Virus record (IMG/VR): IMGVR_UViG_2563366968_000009
From: a virus
Taxonomy: Duplodnaviria; Heunggongvirae; Uroviricota; Caudoviricetes
Direction: 5' to 3' (one strand)
Length of the DNA: 36,135 nt
Numbering within the stretch: the stretch's first letter is position 1; each line of letters begins with the position of its first letter. A program made the translations under genes and the position numbers. Below, one piece after another: positions 7,047 to 29,939 of this stretch. Under the pieces are notes generated by a model that saw nothing but the letters and a program-made list of their open reading frames with translations, did no database searches and was not told the DNA's origin.

Positions 7047-8237
7047 TTAATTGCTGTTAACCGAGGTGACCAGATTTGCCAGGTATTTATCGGTAATACG
7101 CTGGCGCAGGGTCAGGTTTTCAAGAGGAGGCACCGGGGTATAGTCGTAGTCGATATACAGTTTTCCGGCCTTGAGGGTTTCCGCATCGTTGGATTCTTCG
7201 CTGAACCAGCAGGTCGCATCCACGATATAGCCGTTTGTTTTCAGCTCACGGAATTTGGCATTGATACCGTCAACGATGTCGCGAATCAGCGTTGCGGTGA
7301 TGGGCTTGTCCACCGCCCACATGTGCGCCTCAGCCATCGTGTCGGCCAGCACCTGCGCGGTGCGGGTGTAGTTTTCAAAGAGGAACAGCGGGTCATCAGA
7401 GCAGGTACGGTTACCCCAGAAGCGGAAACCGTCGCGGCGAATCAGCGTAGTGACGCCTGACTCGTTAAGCAGGTCAGCATCAGTGCCGGACTCCTGCAAA
7501 TCCCAGAATACAGATGCGCTGATGCCGGTAACACCGTTTACCCCGACGTTGGACAGCGTTTTATGCCAGCCCTGCTCCTGGTCGATTTTAGCGCGCAGAC
7601 CCAGCGCACGGGCGGTGGCATACGCGGTGGCGGTGGTGCTGGTGACCGTATCCCATGCGAGGAAATCCGGCCAGATGACCATCAGCTCACGCTGGCTGAA
7701 ATTCTGGCGGTAGGCTTTCACCTCGGAAATGGTTTTACAGCCCCATGCGCTGATATACCCGAAAGCGCGCAGCTTCTGACAGACAGATGCCAGTGCAACA
7801 GCCACCTCTTTGGTGTCCAGTCCCGGTACGCCGAGAATACGCGGTTTAACACCGGTTACCGACTCCGCCGCCAGCAGGGCTTTCAGTCCGGTGTACTGAC
7901 CGTTTTCGTCGGTGGTGCCGATGATATTGGAAACGGTCTGCGCAAGTTTCGTTTCTTCGTCGTCGCCGGTGCCGTCTTCAACACGCACGACAACGGTGAC
8001 CGGTTTTGACTGGTCAGCGATGGCCTGCAACGACGCCGCCAGCGTGCCTTTTTTACCAGCCTTTGCAATTGCGCTCTGCACATTGGTAATCAGCACCGGT
8101 TTATTGAGGGGGAAGGTTTCCGCATCCGCATCGCTGGCCGTGCAGACCATGCCGACAATGGCAGTGGATACGGTGGAAATGACGCGGGTGCCGTCGTTAA
8201 TCTCCAGCACCTGCACGCCGTGATGATAGTCACTCAT
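7047..8237 (-). CDS. FI: Contractile tail sheath protein gpFI (396 aa)
   Basis: Length and synteny match P2 FI. Confidence 0.9.
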   Translation of the reverse strand: MSDYHHGVQVLEINDGTRVISTVSTAIVGMVCTASDADAETFPLNKPVLITNVQSAIAKAGKKGTLAASLQAIADQSKPVTVVVRVEDGTGDDEETKLAQTVSNIIGTTDENGQYTGLKALLAAESVTGVKPRILGVPGLDTKEVAVALASVCQKLRAFGYISAWGCKTISEVKAYRQNFSQRELMVIWPDFLAWDTVTSTTATAYATARALGLRAKIDQEQGWHKTLSNVGVNGVTGISASVFWDLQESGTDADLLNESGVTTLIRRDGFRFWGNRTCSDDPLFLFENYTRTAQVLADTMAEAHMWAVDKPITATLIRDIVDGINAKFRELKTNGYIVDATCWFSEESNDAETLKAGKLYIDYDYTPVPPLENLTLRQRITDKYLANLVTSVNSN

Positions 8238-8331
8238 CCGTTTAACTCCGTGGTTAATGGGTGCAACTATTTTCTGTTGTGCGAAGCATGAGACGCTATT
8301 TGACCTGGCTGGTCAGTGAATGAAACAACAG

Positions 8332-8361
8332 ATAAAGAAAAGACGGGCAATCAGCCCGTCT
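8332..8361 (-). terminator. Putative terminator at the 3' end of the cargo operon
   Basis: Hairpin AGACGGG-CAATCAG-CCCGTCT (8341..8361) followed on the minus strand by a U-rich tract (CUUUUCUUUAUC). A second hairpin CGGGGGAG-AAAAAAC-CTCCCCCG at 8412..8434 lies just 3' of the stop codon. Confidence 0.45.
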
Positions 8362-8448
8362 TTAAATCACAAATTTTGACAGTTTTTGATTTGCATTCGA
8401 GAATAACAGTTCGGGGGAGAAAAAACCTCCCCCGCCCACGTAACTTGC

Positions 8449-9498
8449 TTAACTACATGAATCAATGATGTTTTTCACAAGCTTATTTATTTCAGATTCA
8501 TTAGTGCCAAATTCACCCGCTTTAAAATTAATACCTCGCGCTGCAAGATTTCTTTTTATTTTACTTACTTCACTCAGCATAAAGTCATAATTTAACGTTT
8601 TTTCTTTAATGCCCTTTGAATATATTACAGGGAAGGCTTTCATTAATGCCGCATATCCTGTGAGTTTACTTAAATAATATTCCCTTGGTGTATTCCACTC
8701 AACTGGATAGACATTGCTAATAGCATTAAAATAATTCAATATTATTTTTTGAATTACAGCGTCATTCTCTTCGATAAAATAATCGCGGAATATACACTGA
8801 TTATTTGGCGTTAATGGCAGATTCATTTTTAACATTCTTGCATCATCATCAGGTTTTTTTGAAATATGTTGGATAAGATATTTAATGAAAGTGCTTTGTG
8901 ATAATGATGCATTATCTTGGTTTATTTCCTTTTTCCCAAGCATTTTTAGCTTTTTATAAAAAGGGGAATCAGGATTACTGTTTATTCCTCTCGCGATTTC
9001 GTGGCATGTTTTTTGTGGACTCCTGCGTTCTGCAAGCGAAAATAAATCATATACAATTGATGGATTTACACGAGTTTGTTTACTATTAATAATTGAGAAA
9101 ACATAGGCTTTTTCTTCATCAGTAAGATCAAACATTAAAACAACAGGTAGTTCAAAAAGTTTAGCATTAGAGGAATTTTTAATTCCCCATAATCTGTGTT
9201 GACCATCGATAACATCACCTATAACCACTTCAGACTCAAAGTAAAAATAGGTATCATCCATTTTTAAATTGGATGAATCATCGACGGAAATTATGATCGG
9301 CGTTGGAAAAGTCGCATCCGGCTCACTAGTGTACTTTGCGATTTCTGAAACTCTTGATGATGAAATATCCCTTTGCACACCAAATTCGAAATCTCTGCGA
9401 CGATCAACTCTAACTATATCGAGCAAGTCAATGGCTCTTATTGATGTTAAATAGAAAGTACCGATTGGTTGATTAACTTCAATATATTTCAACTTCAT
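8449..9498 (-). CDS. DGQHR-motif protein (DndB-like, predicted ParB/Srx-fold), 349 aa; cargo gene 2
   Basis: Motif VIDGQHRLWG at residues 96-105 plus an N-terminal Q-R dipeptide (VQRD, residues 41-44), as in DndB-type proteins. AAGGAG Shine-Dalgarno 7 nt upstream; start ATG overlaps the stop of the upstream membrane gene (ATGA). Visibly AT-rich compared with flanking tail genes. Confidence 0.7.
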   Translation of the reverse strand: MKLKYIEVNQPIGTFYLTSIRAIDLLDIVRVDRRRDFEFGVQRDISSSRVSEIAKYTSEPDATFPTPIIISVDDSSNLKMDDTYFYFESEVVIGDVIDGQHRLWGIKNSSNAKLFELPVVLMFDLTDEEKAYVFSIINSKQTRVNPSIVYDLFSLAERRSPQKTCHEIARGINSNPDSPFYKKLKMLGKKEINQDNASLSQSTFIKYLIQHISKKPDDDARMLKMNLPLTPNNQCIFRDYFIEENDAVIQKIILNYFNAISNVYPVEWNTPREYYLSKLTGYAALMKAFPVIYSKGIKEKTLNYDFMLSEVSKIKRNLAARGINFKAGEFGTNESEINKLVKNIIDSCS

Positions 9499-10094
9499 AT
9501 CATAACTCCTTTACCATCATCAGTTACTTCATTGGTTGCCATTGTCTGATCTATAACTATTGCATCTTCTTTTTCTATATAACTTTCATCATTTATATCT
9601 GTATGTGCAGTAGCGTTAAGTTTTAATACGCCAAATGTATAGCATACTAAGACTATAGAAATAACATAAATTATAGGTTGAGTTAAACCGAATGTTAAAT
9701 CATTAGAATTTGGTAGGATTAAATCCTTTGATTGCGTAGCAGCGTATATTATTCCTGATAATTGTAATAAAATAATCAATAATATTATTGATATGATTTT
9801 TATTGTTTTAAATTCAAGTTTTGAACTAAAAAAAGTTACAAACATAGGCCCAAGGGCAGAGGCTATTAATGCAATGGAAAATGTGTAAAAACTTCCTGAC
9901 GAACCTTCTATGTAAATAGATTGATCTAGTGGTATTGAATGTGAATAATATCTTATGATTATATTTGCAATAATCCCCATTTGCCCACAAACAACTGTAA
10001 AAACGATCCAAATAAAAAACTCTCTTTTGTTTTTTCTTATCGCATCGAATGGATAGGAAAGGGATTTCTTTAATATTTGCCAGTCTTTACTCAT
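9495..10094 (-). CDS. Predicted 4-TM inner-membrane protein with acidic C-terminal tail (about 199 aa); cargo gene 1
   Basis: Four hydrophobic segments (approx residues 29-50, 72-92, 101-122, 142-160 of the track ORF). The track ORF begins at a GTG (10103); I prefer the ATG at 10094 (MSKDWQ...). AT-rich; first gene of a coupled two-gene operon. Confidence 0.6.
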   Translation of the reverse strand: MSKDWQILKKSLSYPFDAIRKNKREFFIWIVFTVVCGQMGIIANIIIRYYSHSIPLDQSIYIEGSSGSFYTFSIALIASALGPMFVTFFSSKLEFKTIKIISIILLIILLQLSGIIYAATQSKDLILPNSNDLTFGLTQPIIYVISIVLVCYTFGVLKLNATAHTDINDESYIEKEDAIVIDQTMATNEVTDDGKGVMI

Positions 10095-10498
10095 GTTATG
10101 CACTCTTTATTTAAACTTATCAACAATATGTAACTATCAATTAATAACCGTTTACTCTTTTCAAATAATAAAATTATAATCATCAAAAAAATCGACATTA
10201 TAATTAGACAACATTTTTAACACTAAGTGATACCTGACTCATGTCTCCAGACCCTAAAACCGCTTGCATAATTTAGAATGATAATACTACCTTATAGTAG
10301 GCTTGTGAACTTATATAGCATGAGTCAAGTAATTAATAAATCACTTATTTCGTTTTTTTTGCATTTGGTCGCTGTGATTTTTTCATAAACAAACTTACAA
10401 TGATGTCAGCAATGTCTGCTCTTGGCACAGAGCGGACTGTCAGATTAGTTTTTACTCTGTGCCATAGATGTATAAACTCACATCAGAGCTTATACAAT

Positions 10499-11077
10499 TT
10501 ATTGTGGCATTTCAGGCCATTCTATATCCGGAGCATCTTCCGGCTGAATGCGATTCAGTAGCACACGGTATTTTTTCCAGTGTGTCAGGCTTAACTTTTC
10601 TTCCTCAGTTGCCATATCCAAATCGACAGCATCCTGCAGCGTGGCAATAATTTCACCTGCATATGCAATCTGCTCTTTCTTCTGAGACTCAGCCGCTCTG
10701 ACAAGTGCATCACGCTCTGCATTCTCATCATTCACCCACGCATTTCCGTTCCATTTCTGATAATCCCCCTCCGGGGAAATGGCTGTCACGTCTGGAGATA
10801 ATGCGCCAAGTTCAGAAATATAAATGGCTGCTCCCGTTTTCGTTTCGTATACGGTCTTTCCGCGATGGTCTTCCATCAACTCCCATTTCATTTCATCTGC
10901 ATTGAAAACGGCTGCATAACCAGCCGGTATATCAGGCGGCGCAATATCTGTACTGTTTGCAGGCAAACCTGTATACGGAGGAATATATGCATCACTTTCG
11001 CCAATAAATTCATTGGTTCCATCAAGTAAATTGAAAACGCGGATAGTTTGTGCTTCTGCACTCATTCTGAAAGCCAT
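10499..11077 (-). CDS. G: Tail fiber assembly chaperone gpG
   Basis: Position immediately after H with TAATG stop/start overlap, and size, match P2 G (Tfa family). Confidence 0.8.
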
Positions 11078-25395: not shown

Positions 25396-25537
25396 ACACC
25401 CCGTCATCACGCCCTCACACGCTCACCACCGCACAAAACACCCCGCAGACACACCAACGCCTCAACGGGCAGACTAAGCGCGGTCACGACGCGCTCAGGC
25501 GCTGAAAAAATAAAATCAGCACCACCGCCTGCGCGCA

Positions 25538-25556
25538 GTGCTTTCCCCGCCTCGCC
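25538..25556. other. cos: cos site (19-nt cohesive end), reverse complement of GGCGAGGCGGGGAAAGCAC
   Basis: Plus-strand GTGCTTTCCCCGCCTCGCC is the reverse complement of the P2 cohesive-end sequence as I recall it; it lies just downstream of Q, where P2 cos is found. Confidence 0.7.
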
Positions 25557-25633
25557 CGCCCGCTTCATGGGTCGGTTTGAATGCAGTTGAATTACAACTA
25601 CCAAACCAAGCAATCCCTACTATTACGCAGAAA

Positions 25634-25680
25634 ATGCATACTGAAATACCTCGTGCAAATTGATGCAGCTAAGTATGCAT
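25634..25680 (-). terminator. Possible terminator or structured element 3' of the cargo gene
   Basis: 9-bp inverted repeat ATGCATACT (25634..25642) and AGTATGCAT (25672..25680) followed on the minus strand by UUUUCUG. A perfect 12-bp palindrome AACGTATACGTT (25695..25706) abuts the stop codon. The long loop makes this uncertain. Confidence 0.3.
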
Positions 25681-25707
25681 AGGTTTTATGCCTCAACGTA
25701 TACGTTA

Positions 25708-27540
25708 TCAAACAGAGCCCTGTTCAAATACAGTATCAAAATATGGTAGGAGAGGATAAGCACACAGAAAGAAAATCAGGATGCATGCATATGTCGTTGT
25801 TTCATCGTAACAAGCATTAGTATATAAATTACCATGTGCTAATTTATGTCTTAAGGTTGCCCCACTCTTTCTATTAAAAAGAACATCGATAGTTAAAACA
25901 AGATTCTTAGAAAAGATACTTTCCAAATCATCTCTGCATTTATCTAGAAGCTGAGAAATACTTGTTGACTCCTCTAATCCCTTATCCAAATATCTAGTAG
26001 CATCCTTTCCACTAAGCTCATAATAATAACGAACCATACCTTCCATTTGTGGTATTAAAAGATAAGCTGCACTGATGTAATCTCCCTGCCATAATTTGTA
26101 AAAGCCCAAATTAAAAATCTCCCTAAACTCCGGCTTGACAATTGGACTAGTTGTAACTAATTTAACGAATGTTGACAACGTCAAGCCATGTTCTTGAGAA
26201 AGTACATAGCGAGCAGGTTCAAAGACACCGTTTACAAAAATCTTATGAGTAATCTCGAAATTTCTTAGATATTGATCAATAACAACATCATCACTCATAT
26301 CTTTTTTATTATCCAACGGCGGGATTGTATATACCTTACGCCCACTCTCATCATTAATTTCTGTTCCAACAAAACTAGAGAATAAACTTTTTTCTGATAA
26401 TCTTAAAACTTGCTCCCTCATGCTTTCAATATTTTCAATCGGTGTTTCACGCATTAAAACTTTGAATATATCGGGCAAAGAACGCCCCGTCAGTTTTTTT
26501 TCACTTTCAGCAACCAAGTCACTAATATCAATAGAATGGCTTAAAGTGACATATTCACTCCTTACTTCTTCTCTCAAATTAGCAAGTTGTTCCTTTAAAT
26601 CTTCTATCTGTTGGCTATCACCACCGTACTGTCTTAATTCAGAGATAGCTGTTCTTAACCAAGAGATCTTACCCATATTATCAGGTCGATCTGTTGCAAC
26701 TTTAATAGTAATATTTGCAGATGCCAGTTTACATCTCTTGGCACGTTCATACTCACCATTTTTTTCATAAATAACTGCACTTGTCATATAAAGTGATTTT
26801 ACAGCATCATAATATTTTTTATCTTTATGCTGCTCAGCCATCTTCTCAGCATTTTCCGCATACTGCAGATTATACCCATCAAAATCACGCACCATAAACC
26901 AAGTCAAATTATTGAAACCTTCAAAGATTAATCTTTCATTTTGAATACTATAAAGAGAATGAATGGCATTTTTAATCGCCATGTTTCCTTCTGATTTTCT
27001 AGGGTAGACCATTTTATTAATGTGCAAAGCCCTAGCAATATAATCACGAGCAAAAATAAAGCAATTTAAATCACTTTCATCCATGCTTTCGTTTTTTATT
27101 ATTAGTTTTTCAATTGCTATATTTAGCATTTCAGCATAGGAATCAATTGCTTTAATTGCCACGTCTTTATTTTTCCGGTTATTACACCAAACAACATCAT
27201 ATATTCTTGATAACAAAAATGGATTGGTTATTTTTTGAGAAACATATAAAAGACAGTCATTCACCTGCTCATCAAAATCTTCAGGCAATATTGATCTTTT
27301 ATTACCCCAAATCATTTGGGGTTCAAATGATGGAGTGTTGTTAACAACTTGCAAATTGAAACTATATAGCATACCAAAAAGAGATGCTAATTTTTTCTCT
27401 TTGGGGTTTCCTGATGATTCAGCAATCCCATCCAGATATTTTTTTATTTTATGTGCATGAAATGTAACTGGTATATGCATAAAAACACTATAATCTAGTG
27501 TTTCAAGCTCTTCCCTTGTAAGAACAAAGATATCATTCAT
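25708..27540 (-). CDS. Large standalone protein (about 610 aa) with C-terminal HEPN-like R-x4-H motif; cargo at the tin/old position
   Basis: C-terminal ...NRKSGATLRHKLAHGNLY... contains R-x4-H. Start placed at the ATG at 27540 (MNDIFVLTREE...) with AAGGTG 6 nt upstream; the track ORF starts at an upstream TTG (27642). Visibly AT-rich; occupies the slot between cos and gene A. Confidence 0.6.
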   Translation of the reverse strand: MNDIFVLTREELETLDYSVFMHIPVTFHAHKIKKYLDGIAESSGNPKEKKLASLFGMLYSFNLQVVNNTPSFEPQMIWGNKRSILPEDFDEQVNDCLLYVSQKITNPFLLSRIYDVVWCNNRKNKDVAIKAIDSYAEMLNIAIEKLIIKNESMDESDLNCFIFARDYIARALHINKMVYPRKSEGNMAIKNAIHSLYSIQNERLIFEGFNNLTWFMVRDFDGYNLQYAENAEKMAEQHKDKKYYDAVKSLYMTSAVIYEKNGEYERAKRCKLASANITIKVATDRPDNMGKISWLRTAISELRQYGGDSQQIEDLKEQLANLREEVRSEYVTLSHSIDISDLVAESEKKLTGRSLPDIFKVLMRETPIENIESMREQVLRLSEKSLFSSFVGTEINDESGRKVYTIPPLDNKKDMSDDVVIDQYLRNFEITHKIFVNGVFEPARYVLSQEHGLTLSTFVKLVTTSPIVKPEFREIFNLGFYKLWQGDYISAAYLLIPQMEGMVRYYYELSGKDATRYLDKGLEESTSISQLLDKCRDDLESIFSKNLVLTIDVLFNRKSGATLRHKLAHGNLYTNACYDETTTYACILIFFLCAYPLLPYFDTVFEQGSV

Positions 27541-27656
27541 CGTTTTCACCTTTTTCAGTATAAATTTGCACACATTATTAGCAACATAATTATCAATAGT
27601 TAACACATGCAGATAAACAGCAATTTTACTATTATGCAACAAATTAAATCAGATGT

Positions 27657-29939
27657 TTATTGCTCTGAATAACAATAAAACCAACTCCACTCATCAGCGA
27701 CCGGATACGTAAATTTTTTCCCGTTGTAATCTACGGTCGCACCACGCGCCAGCGCCTCAAGCTCCCATCGCTGCGGCCTGATACCCTTTTGAGCAAGGTC
27801 AACACGGATACGGGTAATTTGCATTCGTTCCGACCTGGTCAGTCTGGCCGATGGTGCCATTTCATATGGTTTTAACGGGCTTCCGTTTCTTTGCTGACGG
27901 TTTTGCGTTCTCCGACCGTGTTTTAATGCGCCTCTGAGCGCCCTCACAACCTCCGGGTCATTCCATTCTATAACCCCGTCATCAACCAGATTAAGCACTG
28001 CTGCAGCGTGCTCAGACGGTGTGGGAGCCGGTAACGAAGCATCACTACCGGTGAGCTTTCCACAGTTATTGACAGGACTCCGAGGCGCGGCGATGCCGCT
28101 TTTTAAAGTCAAAGGCTCAACGACCGGAACTTTCGGAACAATGCGCCAGTCCGTCGTTCTGGTGATATGAATATGACGCGCGCCGAGATGCGGCGCGTAA
28201 ATGCCGACCACTCTCTCGACTTCTTCCTCGTACTCGTTAACTTCATCCGACGGGCTACGGGCAACCCTGACAGTCTGACAATCGCGCGGGACATTTGCCC
28301 CACCCTGCGCGCTGATATACAACGCAAAATCACCACTGTCTGCGGCGGCGCGTGCAGCCTCGACGCGTTCGTCAAACTCATCAGCAATGCTGACGCCGCG
28401 AGGCAATTTGCGTAGTTCACGGTAAGCGCCCATTGTCGGCAGGCCAACCGTTTTAAATTGCGGGATACGCCACGTTGACGCCCATGCGGTAACAGCCGCT
28501 GCAGTGTCTTTCAGCGGCCTGCCGGTATCGTTATCGAGCTGACCATCCAGTGCATAGCCGTCGATGTTTTTTGAGATGTATTTCGCGATATACCCCGCAG
28601 CACCGCCCCGGTTAAGGTGTTTTGCCTGAAAACGGTTTCGCGCAGCTCCTCTTTCGTCGCCATCCTCTTTGAGTGCGTAGCGACGCATGATTTCGATAAT
28701 CTGGTTACGCTGGCGCGGATTACAAAAAAGCATCATATGCCAGTGCGGCGTTCCGTCGTGGTGTGGCTCGACGACACGCAAACCGTAGACCTGTAAATCA
28801 TTATCCTTGAATGCCGTGCGCATCAGGCTCCAGATATGGCAGAGATAACGCTGCGCATCCTTTGGATTAAATGCCTCATCGTTCCAGCCGTGATTTAGCT
28901 GGACGGTTTTACTTTCGCCTTTTCCGACCTGACGTGTCGGGTGATACTTTGACGGCGCGGTCAGCGTGATAAACATCCCCACATCACCCTCTGCTGCGGC
29001 GTAACGCTCAATACCGGCAATGGTGTTCATCAGCTCCATCCGGCGAATTTCAGGATTAGAAATACTGCCCATCACCTTACTGATAAGGTCGATGCGCTCG
29101 CCGGTTTCCCTGTTTTCAAGGTCACACGATTTAAGAAATTCCAGATTTGCCTGGCGGCGTGCACGTACATCACGAATGGCATGTTTACTGGCATAAGGAG
29201 AACGGTCTTTATTCACCTCCCCGACAGCAATCAGTAACGCCTCATGCCAGCGCATACGCTGGCCTTTAAGCTGATGAGTCCACCACTCATCGTTAAACAG
29301 ACGGGCAATGGCAGAATATGCCTGCCTCGTGGTCATCTGTCCTTTACGGTATTTTTTCCAGTAGAGAGGGGAAATATTGAAAGCTCGTGCAGCGCCAGCA
29401 ACATGACCATACAGGTGATCCTGAGCCTCATCCGTAAACAGTGATTCTTTTTCGCCATGCGCATCCACCCAGGCATCGCTGAGTTCCTCATACATCATGA
29501 AAAGCTGCGATGAGATACGGGCGGCAAACTTTTTCAGCTCCTTGTCATTCATTCCCGGCAGGCGCGCATAGTGGTCACGCTCTGCCAGAAACAGCAACGA
29601 CGCGTCGGTGTTCATTTCATGGCGCTGATTCACACGCTCAATGCGCGGCCATAAACGACGCTGAAAAGTGGATGTGAGGAAATAAAACCCGTGCACCGGG
29701 CTTTTATTGCGCCGGATGTAGTCATAGCGTGAAGTAAACAGCGAGCGCAAAAAGTAAGGCAGGCGGTTAATCGTGGATAAAACACCTTGCACCTGACGCA
29801 TCTCGTCACGTGTAAGGGGTCTTTCGCGCCCGACGGCCTCGCGTGGCGCGTTCCATGCATAAGCACCGGTAAACGTCTTACCGGTGCCTGCGGCAAATGC
29901 TGACGGAGGGACAAAACGCCCGGAGGCTTTAACGACCAT
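27657..29939 (-). CDS. A: Replication initiation protein gpA (rolling-circle nickase), about 760 aa
   Basis: Protein matches P2 gpA from memory (MAVKASGRFVPPSAFAAGTGK...; here MVVKASGRF...). Start placed at the internal ATG; the track ORF (to 29981) is 14 codons longer. The exact start is uncertain. Confidence 0.8.
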   Translation of the reverse strand: MVVKASGRFVPPSAFAAGTGKTFTGAYAWNAPREAVGRERPLTRDEMRQVQGVLSTINRLPYFLRSLFTSRYDYIRRNKSPVHGFYFLTSTFQRRLWPRIERVNQRHEMNTDASLLFLAERDHYARLPGMNDKELKKFAARISSQLFMMYEELSDAWVDAHGEKESLFTDEAQDHLYGHVAGAARAFNISPLYWKKYRKGQMTTRQAYSAIARLFNDEWWTHQLKGQRMRWHEALLIAVGEVNKDRSPYASKHAIRDVRARRQANLEFLKSCDLENRETGERIDLISKVMGSISNPEIRRMELMNTIAGIERYAAAEGDVGMFITLTAPSKYHPTRQVGKGESKTVQLNHGWNDEAFNPKDAQRYLCHIWSLMRTAFKDNDLQVYGLRVVEPHHDGTPHWHMMLFCNPRQRNQIIEIMRRYALKEDGDERGAARNRFQAKHLNRGGAAGYIAKYISKNIDGYALDGQLDNDTGRPLKDTAAAVTAWASTWRIPQFKTVGLPTMGAYRELRKLPRGVSIADEFDERVEAARAAADSGDFALYISAQGGANVPRDCQTVRVARSPSDEVNEYEEEVERVVGIYAPHLGARHIHITRTTDWRIVPKVPVVEPLTLKSGIAAPRSPVNNCGKLTGSDASLPAPTPSEHAAAVLNLVDDGVIEWNDPEVVRALRGALKHGRRTQNRQQRNGSPLKPYEMAPSARLTRSERMQITRIRVDLAQKGIRPQRWELEALARGATVDYNGKKFTYPVADEWSWFYCYSEQ

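Follow-up and report, generated by a model that had tools for sequence, protein, structure and literature searches.

A translationally coupled membrane protein and DGQHR protein in the Z/fun slot of a P2-like Escherichia coli prophage: a mobile two-gene cassette with relatives beside DNA-modification genes

We analysed an AT-rich cargo cassette of an Escherichia coli P2-like prophage, the 36,135-nucleotide IMG/VR virus record IMGVR_UViG_2563366968_000009, which is referred to as a whole as the window. The cassette encodes a small membrane protein (A) and a protein with a DGQHR motif (B), and the region of the insert was 100% identical to strain AREA_502. The recurrent linkage of the wider family of transmembrane (TM) plus DGQHR proteins to DNA-modification genes is the strongest clue to function, and it was absent from an initial annotation made from the sequence of the window without database searches. 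The genes and signals of the locus are listed below (aa, amino acids; GC, guanine plus cytosine content as a fraction).

8362..10414: cargo cassette proper, 2053 bp, GC about 0.3, within the P2 G-FI (Z/fun) hotspot
9495..10094, minus strand: gene A, 199 aa from an ATG, RefSeq WP_001530525
8449..9498, minus strand: gene B, 349 aa
9495..9512, minus strand: translational coupling of A and B, with an AAAGGAG Shine-Dalgarno (9512..9506) inside the final codons of A, then an ATGA stop/start overlap (9498..9495)
10281..10309, minus strand: sigma-70-like promoter candidate TTCACA-17-TATTAT
8412..8434, minus strand: GC-rich terminator-like hairpin, 15 nt past the stop codon of B, inside the cargo
8339..8363, minus strand: terminator-like hairpin of the rho-independent type, bearing a T run, at the left cargo junction and immediately upstream of the region of the pF late promoter, which is conserved
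7047..8237: tail sheath gene FI, flanking the insert
10499..11077: tail-fibre assembly gene G, flanking the insert
10423..10464, minus strand: inverted repeat with 9 perfect pairs, downstream of gene G, in the P2 backbone and outside the cargo

The initial annotation had placed an AT-rich insert between FI and G, in the slot of the P2 Z/fun locus, and this was borne out by a GC of 0.27-0.33 throughout the insert versus 0.52-0.58 in the flanking tail genes. Homology of the backbone to phages fiAA91-ss, vB_EcoM-12474III and P2 ended at 8358-8361 and restarted at 10411-10415, and the cargo boundaries were set at 8362 and 10414 because of this comparison. In P2 the slot is occupied by fun(Z), which lies on the opposite strand and is flanked by the V-operon terminator and by the pF late promoter; unlike fun(Z), the present cargo has the orientation of the late genes. 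What lies between gene G and the pF/FI late promoter is variable and does not belong to the backbone, which places it among the cargoes of the Z/fun hotspot. Among 5426 complete E. coli genomes, 958 matched the flanks only and carried other cargo (DUF3800, SMEK and others), while the present cargo was found in three. The G-FI slot is hypervariable. It had also been named as a position for defence cargo, in agreement with Vassallo 2022 (PMC9519451), where the fun locus is the second defence-enriched hotspot of P2.

Hairpins had been proposed to bound the insert on both sides. A terminator-like hairpin was found at the left junction (8339..8363). The inverted repeat on the other side (10423..10464) has 9 perfect pairs and not the 10 bp first given, and it falls within a segment (10415..10522) that is conserved in P2-like phages with different cargo (fiAA91-ss, 12474III and P2); it is therefore not part of the insert. 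A search for direct or inverted repeats flanking the insert yielded only chance AT-rich matches, and flanking repeats were dropped as a signature of mobility. In fiAA91-ss (L141; 985-1020 and 2224-2331), the 36-bp G-proximal junction piece, corresponding to window 10411..10446, is repeated in inverted orientation beyond the cargo of that phage, which hints at a recombination scar at the hotspot. The window contains no second copy of a junction piece of this type.

The ATGA overlap that couples A to the 349-aa protein was seen in the sequence as first stated, and the A-B junctions abut or overlap in nearly all homologous loci. The program-made open reading frame (ORF) of gene A is slightly longer (9495..10103, 202 aa from a GTG at 10103), and the ATG at 10094 is favoured as the start because of the RefSeq entry and an AAGAG Shine-Dalgarno. 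The promoter candidate, the best match in the 320-bp AT-rich leader, is a match to the consensus only. In MSB1_4E, one of the three cargo-bearing E. coli genomes (L139, 3606-4303), an IS1 element lies in the leader at window position ~10318-10326, just upstream of this candidate, and could silence or re-drive the cassette.

Protein A is the four-TM protein with an acidic tail that the initial annotation had described. Hydropathy and the AlphaFold2 (AF2) model gave four hydrophobic helices, with TM segments near residues 28, 71, 98 and 141. In the model, which had a mean pLDDT (predicted local distance difference test) of 74, the four long helices come after a basic helix and lead into an acidic C-terminal tail that ends DDGKGVMI. 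By the positive-inside rule, A is predicted to be an inner-membrane protein with both ends in the cytoplasm (N-in/C-in). There was no match to A in Pfam, NCBIfam, PHROGs or PADLOC. An HMMER scan of 1.84 billion representatives assembled an A family of 266 clusters, all of them small stand-alone proteins of 54-275 aa, and no domain fusion was found among these clusters. The family has conserved motifs in TM1 (FTxxxGQxGIxxNxIxR) and TM2 (GSFYTxSIAxxASxLGP), invariant polar residues within the TM helices (Q38, N44, R48, S68, Y70 and T71) and a C-terminal D-x-x-G, which takes the form DGKGV-x-[LI] in most members. In the window the terminal K-G-V codons of A double as the Shine-Dalgarno of B, and part of the C-terminal conservation may therefore be at the RNA level.

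Both motifs that had been noticed in B, DGQHR and an N-terminal Q-R dipeptide, were located in the translation at the following positions.

9193..9207, minus strand: DGQHR motif, aa 98-102, invariant across 48 homologues
9187..9213, minus strand: segment translated as VIDGQHRLW
9370..9375, minus strand: Q42-R43 dipeptide, invariant across 48 homologues

In profile searches B passed the DGQHR domain model TIGR03187 (161.9 bits, cut-off 58.85), and the fold of its N-terminal domain was confirmed as that of the ParB/Srx superfamily, as had been proposed. B also passed the Pfam DndB model PF14072 (42.6, cut-off 29.1), over profile positions 7-161 of 338 only, which is the N-terminal half. The best-scoring full-length curated model was TIGR04172, with 168.9 bits over residues 5-343 and below the cut-off of 450; all B relatives tested against it scored 130-225 bits, likewise below 450. 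The DpdB model aligned with most of B at 56.2 bits, below its cut-off of 300 (PADLOC and NCBIfam). The PADLOC matches of B were weak DpdB matches only, and in PHROGs B fell into a 'ParB-like partition protein' family. No NCBIfam model of a canonical DndB equivalog matched B at E<=1. Canonical DndB is moreover encoded by the first gene of a dndBCDE operon, and no dnd operon is present here.

The layout of B is that of an N-terminal ParB/Srx-fold domain resembling a nucleoside triphosphatase (NTPase), at about aa 1-125, followed by a helical C-terminal region, overall as in DndB and DpdB; weak structural matches include SspE and BrxU. The DGQHR motif is presumed to be the nucleotide-phosphate-binding Box II/P-motif of the ParB fold. 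The C-terminal half gave no convincing match, with zero Pfam matches even at E<=10, and no nuclease family was found in Pfam at E<=10 with either the full-length protein or the C-terminal fragment. Nothing supports the nuclease role that the initial annotation had offered for B. The C-terminal half does contain an invariant R159-x6-H166, a candidate HEPN-like motif, and a HEPN domain found no support from Pfam or from structure. In the proposal of Makarova 2013, DndB is a ParB+HEPN fusion, with a C-terminal HEPN domain that has an Rx4-6H motif (PMC3632139). A sequence search of the PDB with the B profile returned only matches to PsaD, which were rejected as spurious. A Bacteroidales-type subgroup of B proteins of ~460 aa (P0082, P0087, P0096 and P0105; L012, L014 and L024) has a C-terminal extension of ~100 aa ending YM-x-GMD-x-ESW and retains the A gene upstream.

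B has about 1,500 relatives at the cluster level, with roughly 50% identity across very different phyla, and more than 1,400 clusters at 90% identity. In a census of one genome per species, which covered 44 loci of the close family, 35 had an A-family ORF directly upstream that abuts or overlaps B. These 35 loci span Bacteroidota, Gamma- and Betaproteobacteria, Bacillota, Verrucomicrobia, Paceibacterota and a Methanolobus archaeon. In the remaining nine the A position is taken by a divergent ORF, 114-215 aa long and predicted to contain 1-5 TM segments, and most of these ORFs end in a similar D/N-G-x-x-[VK]-[LI] peptide. Conversely, B followed every A homologue whose surroundings were examined. 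The ratio of nonsynonymous to synonymous substitution (dN/dS) was 0.07-0.18 for both genes, which indicates purifying selection on A and B. The A-B pair is a genuine co-evolving two-gene module; its homologues, as the first proposal required, were nearly always found together and lay in mobile or defence-type contexts. In two dndFGH-linked loci of Pseudoalteromonas and Idiomarina (L029/L030, 7345-7992), the A variant consists of two N-terminal TM helices and a soluble domain of ~140 aa. It still ends TDGKGTKL or SDGVNKL, so the C-terminal peptide is retained there while the membrane part is remodelled.

The B tree scrambles the host phylogeny, and rampant horizontal transfer was concluded from it. 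The pair occurs as a cassette of the Vibrio cholerae superintegron, in Pectobacterium and Serratia islets with the order tacAT-A-B-403aa-ccdA-int, and between housekeeping genes in Chryseobacterium, Acinetobacter (beside valS) and Aeromonas; Type II methyltransferases and a Type IV restriction endonuclease are among its other neighbours. In the Enterobacterales (L002/L003 of Pectobacterium, L148-L150 of Serratia and L143 of Salmonella), the pair was repeatedly observed together with tacA-tacT (GNAT toxin), ccdA/integrase remnants and a conserved companion protein without a Pfam match, which has 403 aa, but 368 aa in Salmonella. The window segment 8363..10433, with leader and terminator included, was 97.3% identical to a segment of Salmonella enterica (L143-L145, 4661-6732), which lies in a chromosomal islet, with cueP, tacAT and an integrase remnant on one side and glyS on the other. 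This identity between a phage hotspot and a Salmonella islet indicates that the 2.07-kb unit moves as a discrete cassette. In the sequence collection, 570 blocks list a near-identical A protein (P0122), and every sampled place was a Salmonella islet; the cassette is therefore much more frequent in Salmonella than in E. coli.

Relatives of the pair are physically tied to modules of N6-methyladenine (m6A) or phosphorothioate modification. Linkage to dnd genes was surveyed by tblastn with Dnd proteins in 47 close loci. The genes dndCDE, with or without dndA and dndFGH, lay directly beside the pair in six of them, from Franconibacter, Pseudoalteromonas, Idiomarina, Paucibacter, Pelomonas and a cyanobacterium. 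The order in Pseudoalteromonas and Idiomarina is dndFGH-A'-B with a convergent dndEDCA, and in the cyanobacterium dndCDE-A-B lie on one strand as an apparent operon. No canonical dndB was visible in the four dnd-linked loci that show the whole cluster. A blastn search of E. coli genomes with Franconibacter dndEDC, meant to reveal dnd genes in the host strains, gave no match, and a search at the DNA level is uninformative here. Furthermore, in seven other close loci a D12-class (Dam-like) N6-adenine methyltransferase was encoded within 3 kb of the pair (<=3 kb), adjoining B in three.

The linkage to methyltransferases was most regular in a sister clade of B (clade 2), whose proteins have 380-400 aa and 34-42% identity to B of the window. 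These proteins come from IMG/VR prophage contigs of ~35-40 kb, and in two of them (L103 and L107) the GC was seen to be lower across the pair than around it. The B protein of this clade always has an abutting upstream ORF with 3-4 TM segments. A Dam-like methyltransferase was present in 21 of 23 loci and directly adjacent in 20; its gene either follows closely on B in convergent orientation or immediately precedes the TM gene. The enzyme was 32% identical to E. coli Dam. In one P2-like prophage with GPA and GPD (L103, 6650-9952, from the series L097-L118), the order is cI repressor, TM protein, DGQHR protein and convergent methyltransferase, and L102 and L106 likewise have a cI homologue immediately upstream of the pair. 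A tblastn search of GenBank phages with a clade-2 B protein found no match. In the alignment of A with the TM family of this clade, TM1-TM3 are colinear and GSFYTFS stands opposite GELLIYS. In a neighbour-joining tree, the modification-linked loci are on deep branches, and the crown group that includes the window is mostly stand-alone.

Distant DGQHR proteins of ~510-530 aa were also observed without an A-type partner in diverse Alphaproteobacteria and others (L056-L077). There, as in L060 (7902-11634), an apparent operon encodes the DGQHR protein, a 451-aa protein and a Dam-like methyltransferase, which suggests a separate recurrent DGQHR/methyltransferase system.

We tentatively read the cassette as a prophage-borne immunity or exclusion module, in which surveillance of DNA is membrane-tethered, dependent on nucleoside triphosphate (NTP) and possibly able to read the modification state; we give this reading slightly less than an even chance. 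Proteins with the ParB fold act as NTP-dependent switches that bind DNA, both DNA and ATP are bound by DndB, and the DUF262 domain of SspE senses phosphorothioate. On the strength of this family knowledge of ParB, DndB, DpdB and SspE, and of the binding of ATP and GTP by a DndB-like protein, B would survey DNA in a nucleotide-dependent manner, acting as an NTP-dependent DNA-binding switch like ParB, DndB, DpdB and the N-terminal domain of SspE, and it would be sensitive to the modification state of that DNA. The anatomy of A, with its conserved cytoplasmic end and its polar TM motifs, is the reason for assigning to it both the docking of B and the output or sensor. The conserved C-terminal peptide of A may dock B at the membrane, and the invariant polar motifs of TM1 and TM2 may form an effector, with an ion leak or growth arrest upon the engagement of foreign DNA by B, or else a sensor where DNA enters. 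Where the host is Dam-positive, as E. coli, Salmonella and Vibrio are, the resident methylation may serve the stand-alone pair in place of a linked methyltransferase.

A broader proposal, which is speculative and somewhat unlikely, is that the TM plus DGQHR pair forms the core of a hitherto unrecognised class of immunity linked to DNA modification. In it, an NTP switch with the ParB fold, docked to the membrane, would read m6A or phosphorothioate at or near that membrane and would signal through a four-helix membrane protein and not through a nuclease. The stand-alone cassettes of E. coli, Salmonella and Vibrio would then be 'restriction-only', with the Dam methylation of the host as the self mark.

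Several observations weigh against an immunity module that reads DNA modification. By tblastn, the 36-kb window is without dndA, dndC, dndD, dndE or a linked methyltransferase, and most crown-group loci are stand-alone, some of them between housekeeping genes; a role for DNA modification in the action of this particular cassette is for these reasons an extrapolation. The homology between A and the clade-2 TM family is only suggestive (hhalign probability 52%, E 1.5e-4). The fold search with A yielded only generic helical bundles, and the chemistry of an effector is not readable from A. The conservation of K-G-V in A is partly confounded by the Shine-Dalgarno of B. Canonical DndB is a transcriptional regulator and not an immune effector (PMC4507180), and in the literature searched no phage-resistance or other phenotype is reported for any member of the family.

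It is possible, although unlikely, that the pair acts by abortive infection independently of modification: B would sense a phage protein or generic phage DNA and open A, which kills or arrests the cell, and the links to methyltransferase and dnd genes would reflect clustering in defence islands. Pairs of a sensor and a TM effector are common in prophage hotspots (RexAB and the TM-associated systems of Rousset 2022), most crown-group loci including the window are without a linked modification gene, and the polar residues of the A helices are invariant, all of which is consistent with such a mode of action. However, the adjacency of the methyltransferase in 20 of 23 clade-2 loci, in two gene orders, and the operon-like dndCDE-A-B arrangements are too regular for chance clustering, and elsewhere the DGQHR/DUF262 superfamily shows a consistent tie to DNA modification (DndB, DpdB, SspE and GmrSD). 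Abortive infection through A, as the initial annotation had pictured it, is pure inference.

We consider it quite unlikely that the pair is a regulatory module, in which B would be a DndB-like, NTP-modulated DNA-binding repressor that tunes a modification system or its own cassette, and A would couple a membrane or envelope signal to it. Canonical DndB (DptB) is an ATP-modulated repressor of dndBCDE (PMC4507180). The architecture of B is that of full-length DndB/DpdB with no extra enzymatic domain, and relatives of B are physically linked to dnd and methyltransferase genes. However, there is no obvious target in the stand-alone cassettes that move among the P2 hotspot, integron arrays and chromosomal islets, and the obligate membrane partner is left unexplained. 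Moreover, the satellite does not simply replace DndB, because Serratia odorifera has a TIGR04172 protein, a satellite DGQHR protein, in addition to DptB (PMC3226654).

The presence of the pair in the V. cholerae superintegron and in islets rich in toxin-antitoxin genes (tacAT, ccdA and higBA), together with its small size, translational coupling and high mobility, would suit a selfish addiction module, with A as a holin-like membrane toxin that B neutralises so that the carrier elements are stabilised. This is highly improbable, since a 349-aa ParB-fold NTPase is atypical as an antitoxin, the putative toxin gene comes first, the strongly conserved NTPase motifs suggest an active enzymatic or switch role, and the linkage to modification genes is left unexplained. 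An accessory function in the phage life cycle, such as tail or DNA injection, lysis timing or late-gene expression, shares with the data only the late-gene orientation of the cargo and is extremely unlikely, given the 97.3% identical cassette outside any prophage in Salmonella, the homologues in integrons, between housekeeping genes and in an archaeon, the terminator-like hairpins and AT-rich leader that isolate the cassette from the late operons, and the lack of this cargo in 955 of the 958 E. coli genomes that match the flanks.

If the cassette, read as an immunity module, proves functional, it would add a widespread system that includes V. cholerae integron cassettes and archaea, and the 'dnd satellite' DGQHR proteins, which have been unexplained since 2011, would gain a first functional handle. 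Orphan Dam methylation could then act as a self mark for prophage-borne immunity. The combination of a sensor of the ParB/DGQHR superfamily with a membrane-protein output is absent from current defence catalogues. The question is directly testable with a 2-kb cassette of E. coli origin that has its own promoter region.

Two further observations were made elsewhere in the window. A second AT-rich island at ~25500..28000 is the other P2 hotspot (the old/tin position), beside a 774-aa ORF, and it contains the following gene.

25708..27642, minus strand: 644-aa protein, matching the PADLOC candidate family PDC-S39 (E 1e-84)

Because of this match at the old/tin position, candidate defence cargo is present in both hotspots of the prophage. 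An Rfam scan of the region gave a sole match, IS009, at 10536..10700 on the minus strand within gene G; it was below threshold (47 bits, gathering cut-off 117) and ran into the edge of the scanned range. The match probably stems from a P2-like remnant among the seed sequences of IS009 and not from an RNA gene here.

The pair of a membrane protein and a DGQHR protein corresponds to no named defence or modification system in PADLOC-DB v2.0.0, NCBIfam, Pfam or PHROGs, in line with the first assessment. Likewise, a pair of a DGQHR/DndB-like protein and a membrane protein is undescribed in the literature searched, whose coverage was incomplete, so that a prior description is possible. In the same literature the RefSeq accessions of the pair are unnamed, and PF14072 was found only in noise from Plasmodium gene identifiers and in the GmrSD paper. 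A system of ParB, DndB or DGQHR with a TM protein is absent from Rousset 2022, Vassallo 2022, a 2026 P2/P4 preprint, a domain-centric 2026 paper, DefensePredictor and a metagenomic-selection paper. The V. cholerae integron systems (Sucellos, which is RexAB-like, and others of Darracq et al.) were considered and set aside, as their descriptions are without ParB or Dnd features.

Among known families, the nearest is TIGR04172, 'DNA phosphorothioation-associated DGQHR protein 1', a satellite of the dnd/DPT system (Basu, Selengut & Haft 2011, PMC3226654). This family was set up on the grounds that the proteins in it were 'invariably found adjacent to' dnd genes and resembled a satellite 'analogous to DptFGH' (PMC3226654). 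B shares the DGQHR architecture with TIGR04172, and some close relatives of B sit at the same spot between dndH and dndE. However, B of the window is far under the 450-bit cut-off, the window is without dnd genes, only 6 of 47 close loci are adjacent to dnd, and a membrane partner is present for B but not described for TIGR04172.

Canonical DndB resembles B in its ParB-like DGQHR N-terminal domain, with PF14072 passed, and B is expected to bind NTP. In vitro binding of ATP and GTP is reported for a DndB-like protein (bioRxiv 10.1101/2025.10.10.680097). In contrast to DndB, B aligns with the N-terminal half of PF14072 only, lies outside any dnd operon and has a TM partner. Models of DpdB, which serves as the ATPase in 7-deazaguanine DNA modification by the Dpd system, align over most of B. 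However, B scores 56.2 bits versus the required 300, and its neighbours are phage tail genes, with no dpdA or dpdC seen.

Lambda RexAB, Kiwa (KwaAB) and other prophage exclusion systems that combine a cytoplasmic partner with a multi-TM protein are similar in logic to the present cassette as two-gene prophage pairs of a small four-TM protein and a soluble protein linked to nucleic acid, and the clade-2 pair lies directly downstream of cI in three loci (L102, L103 and L106), as rexAB does. However, no sequence relationship to RexAB or Kiwa was detected (A had zero PADLOC, Pfam and PHROG matches, and B matched DGQHR models only), and the soluble partner here is a ParB-fold NTPase. The modification-sensing DUF262/DGQQR proteins SspE and GmrSD/BrxU resemble B in a ParB/Srx-fold NTPase domain that is tied to modification-dependent immunity. 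Those proteins fuse a DUF1524/HNH nuclease to this domain, whereas B is without a nuclease domain and the presumed output of the pair is a separate membrane protein.

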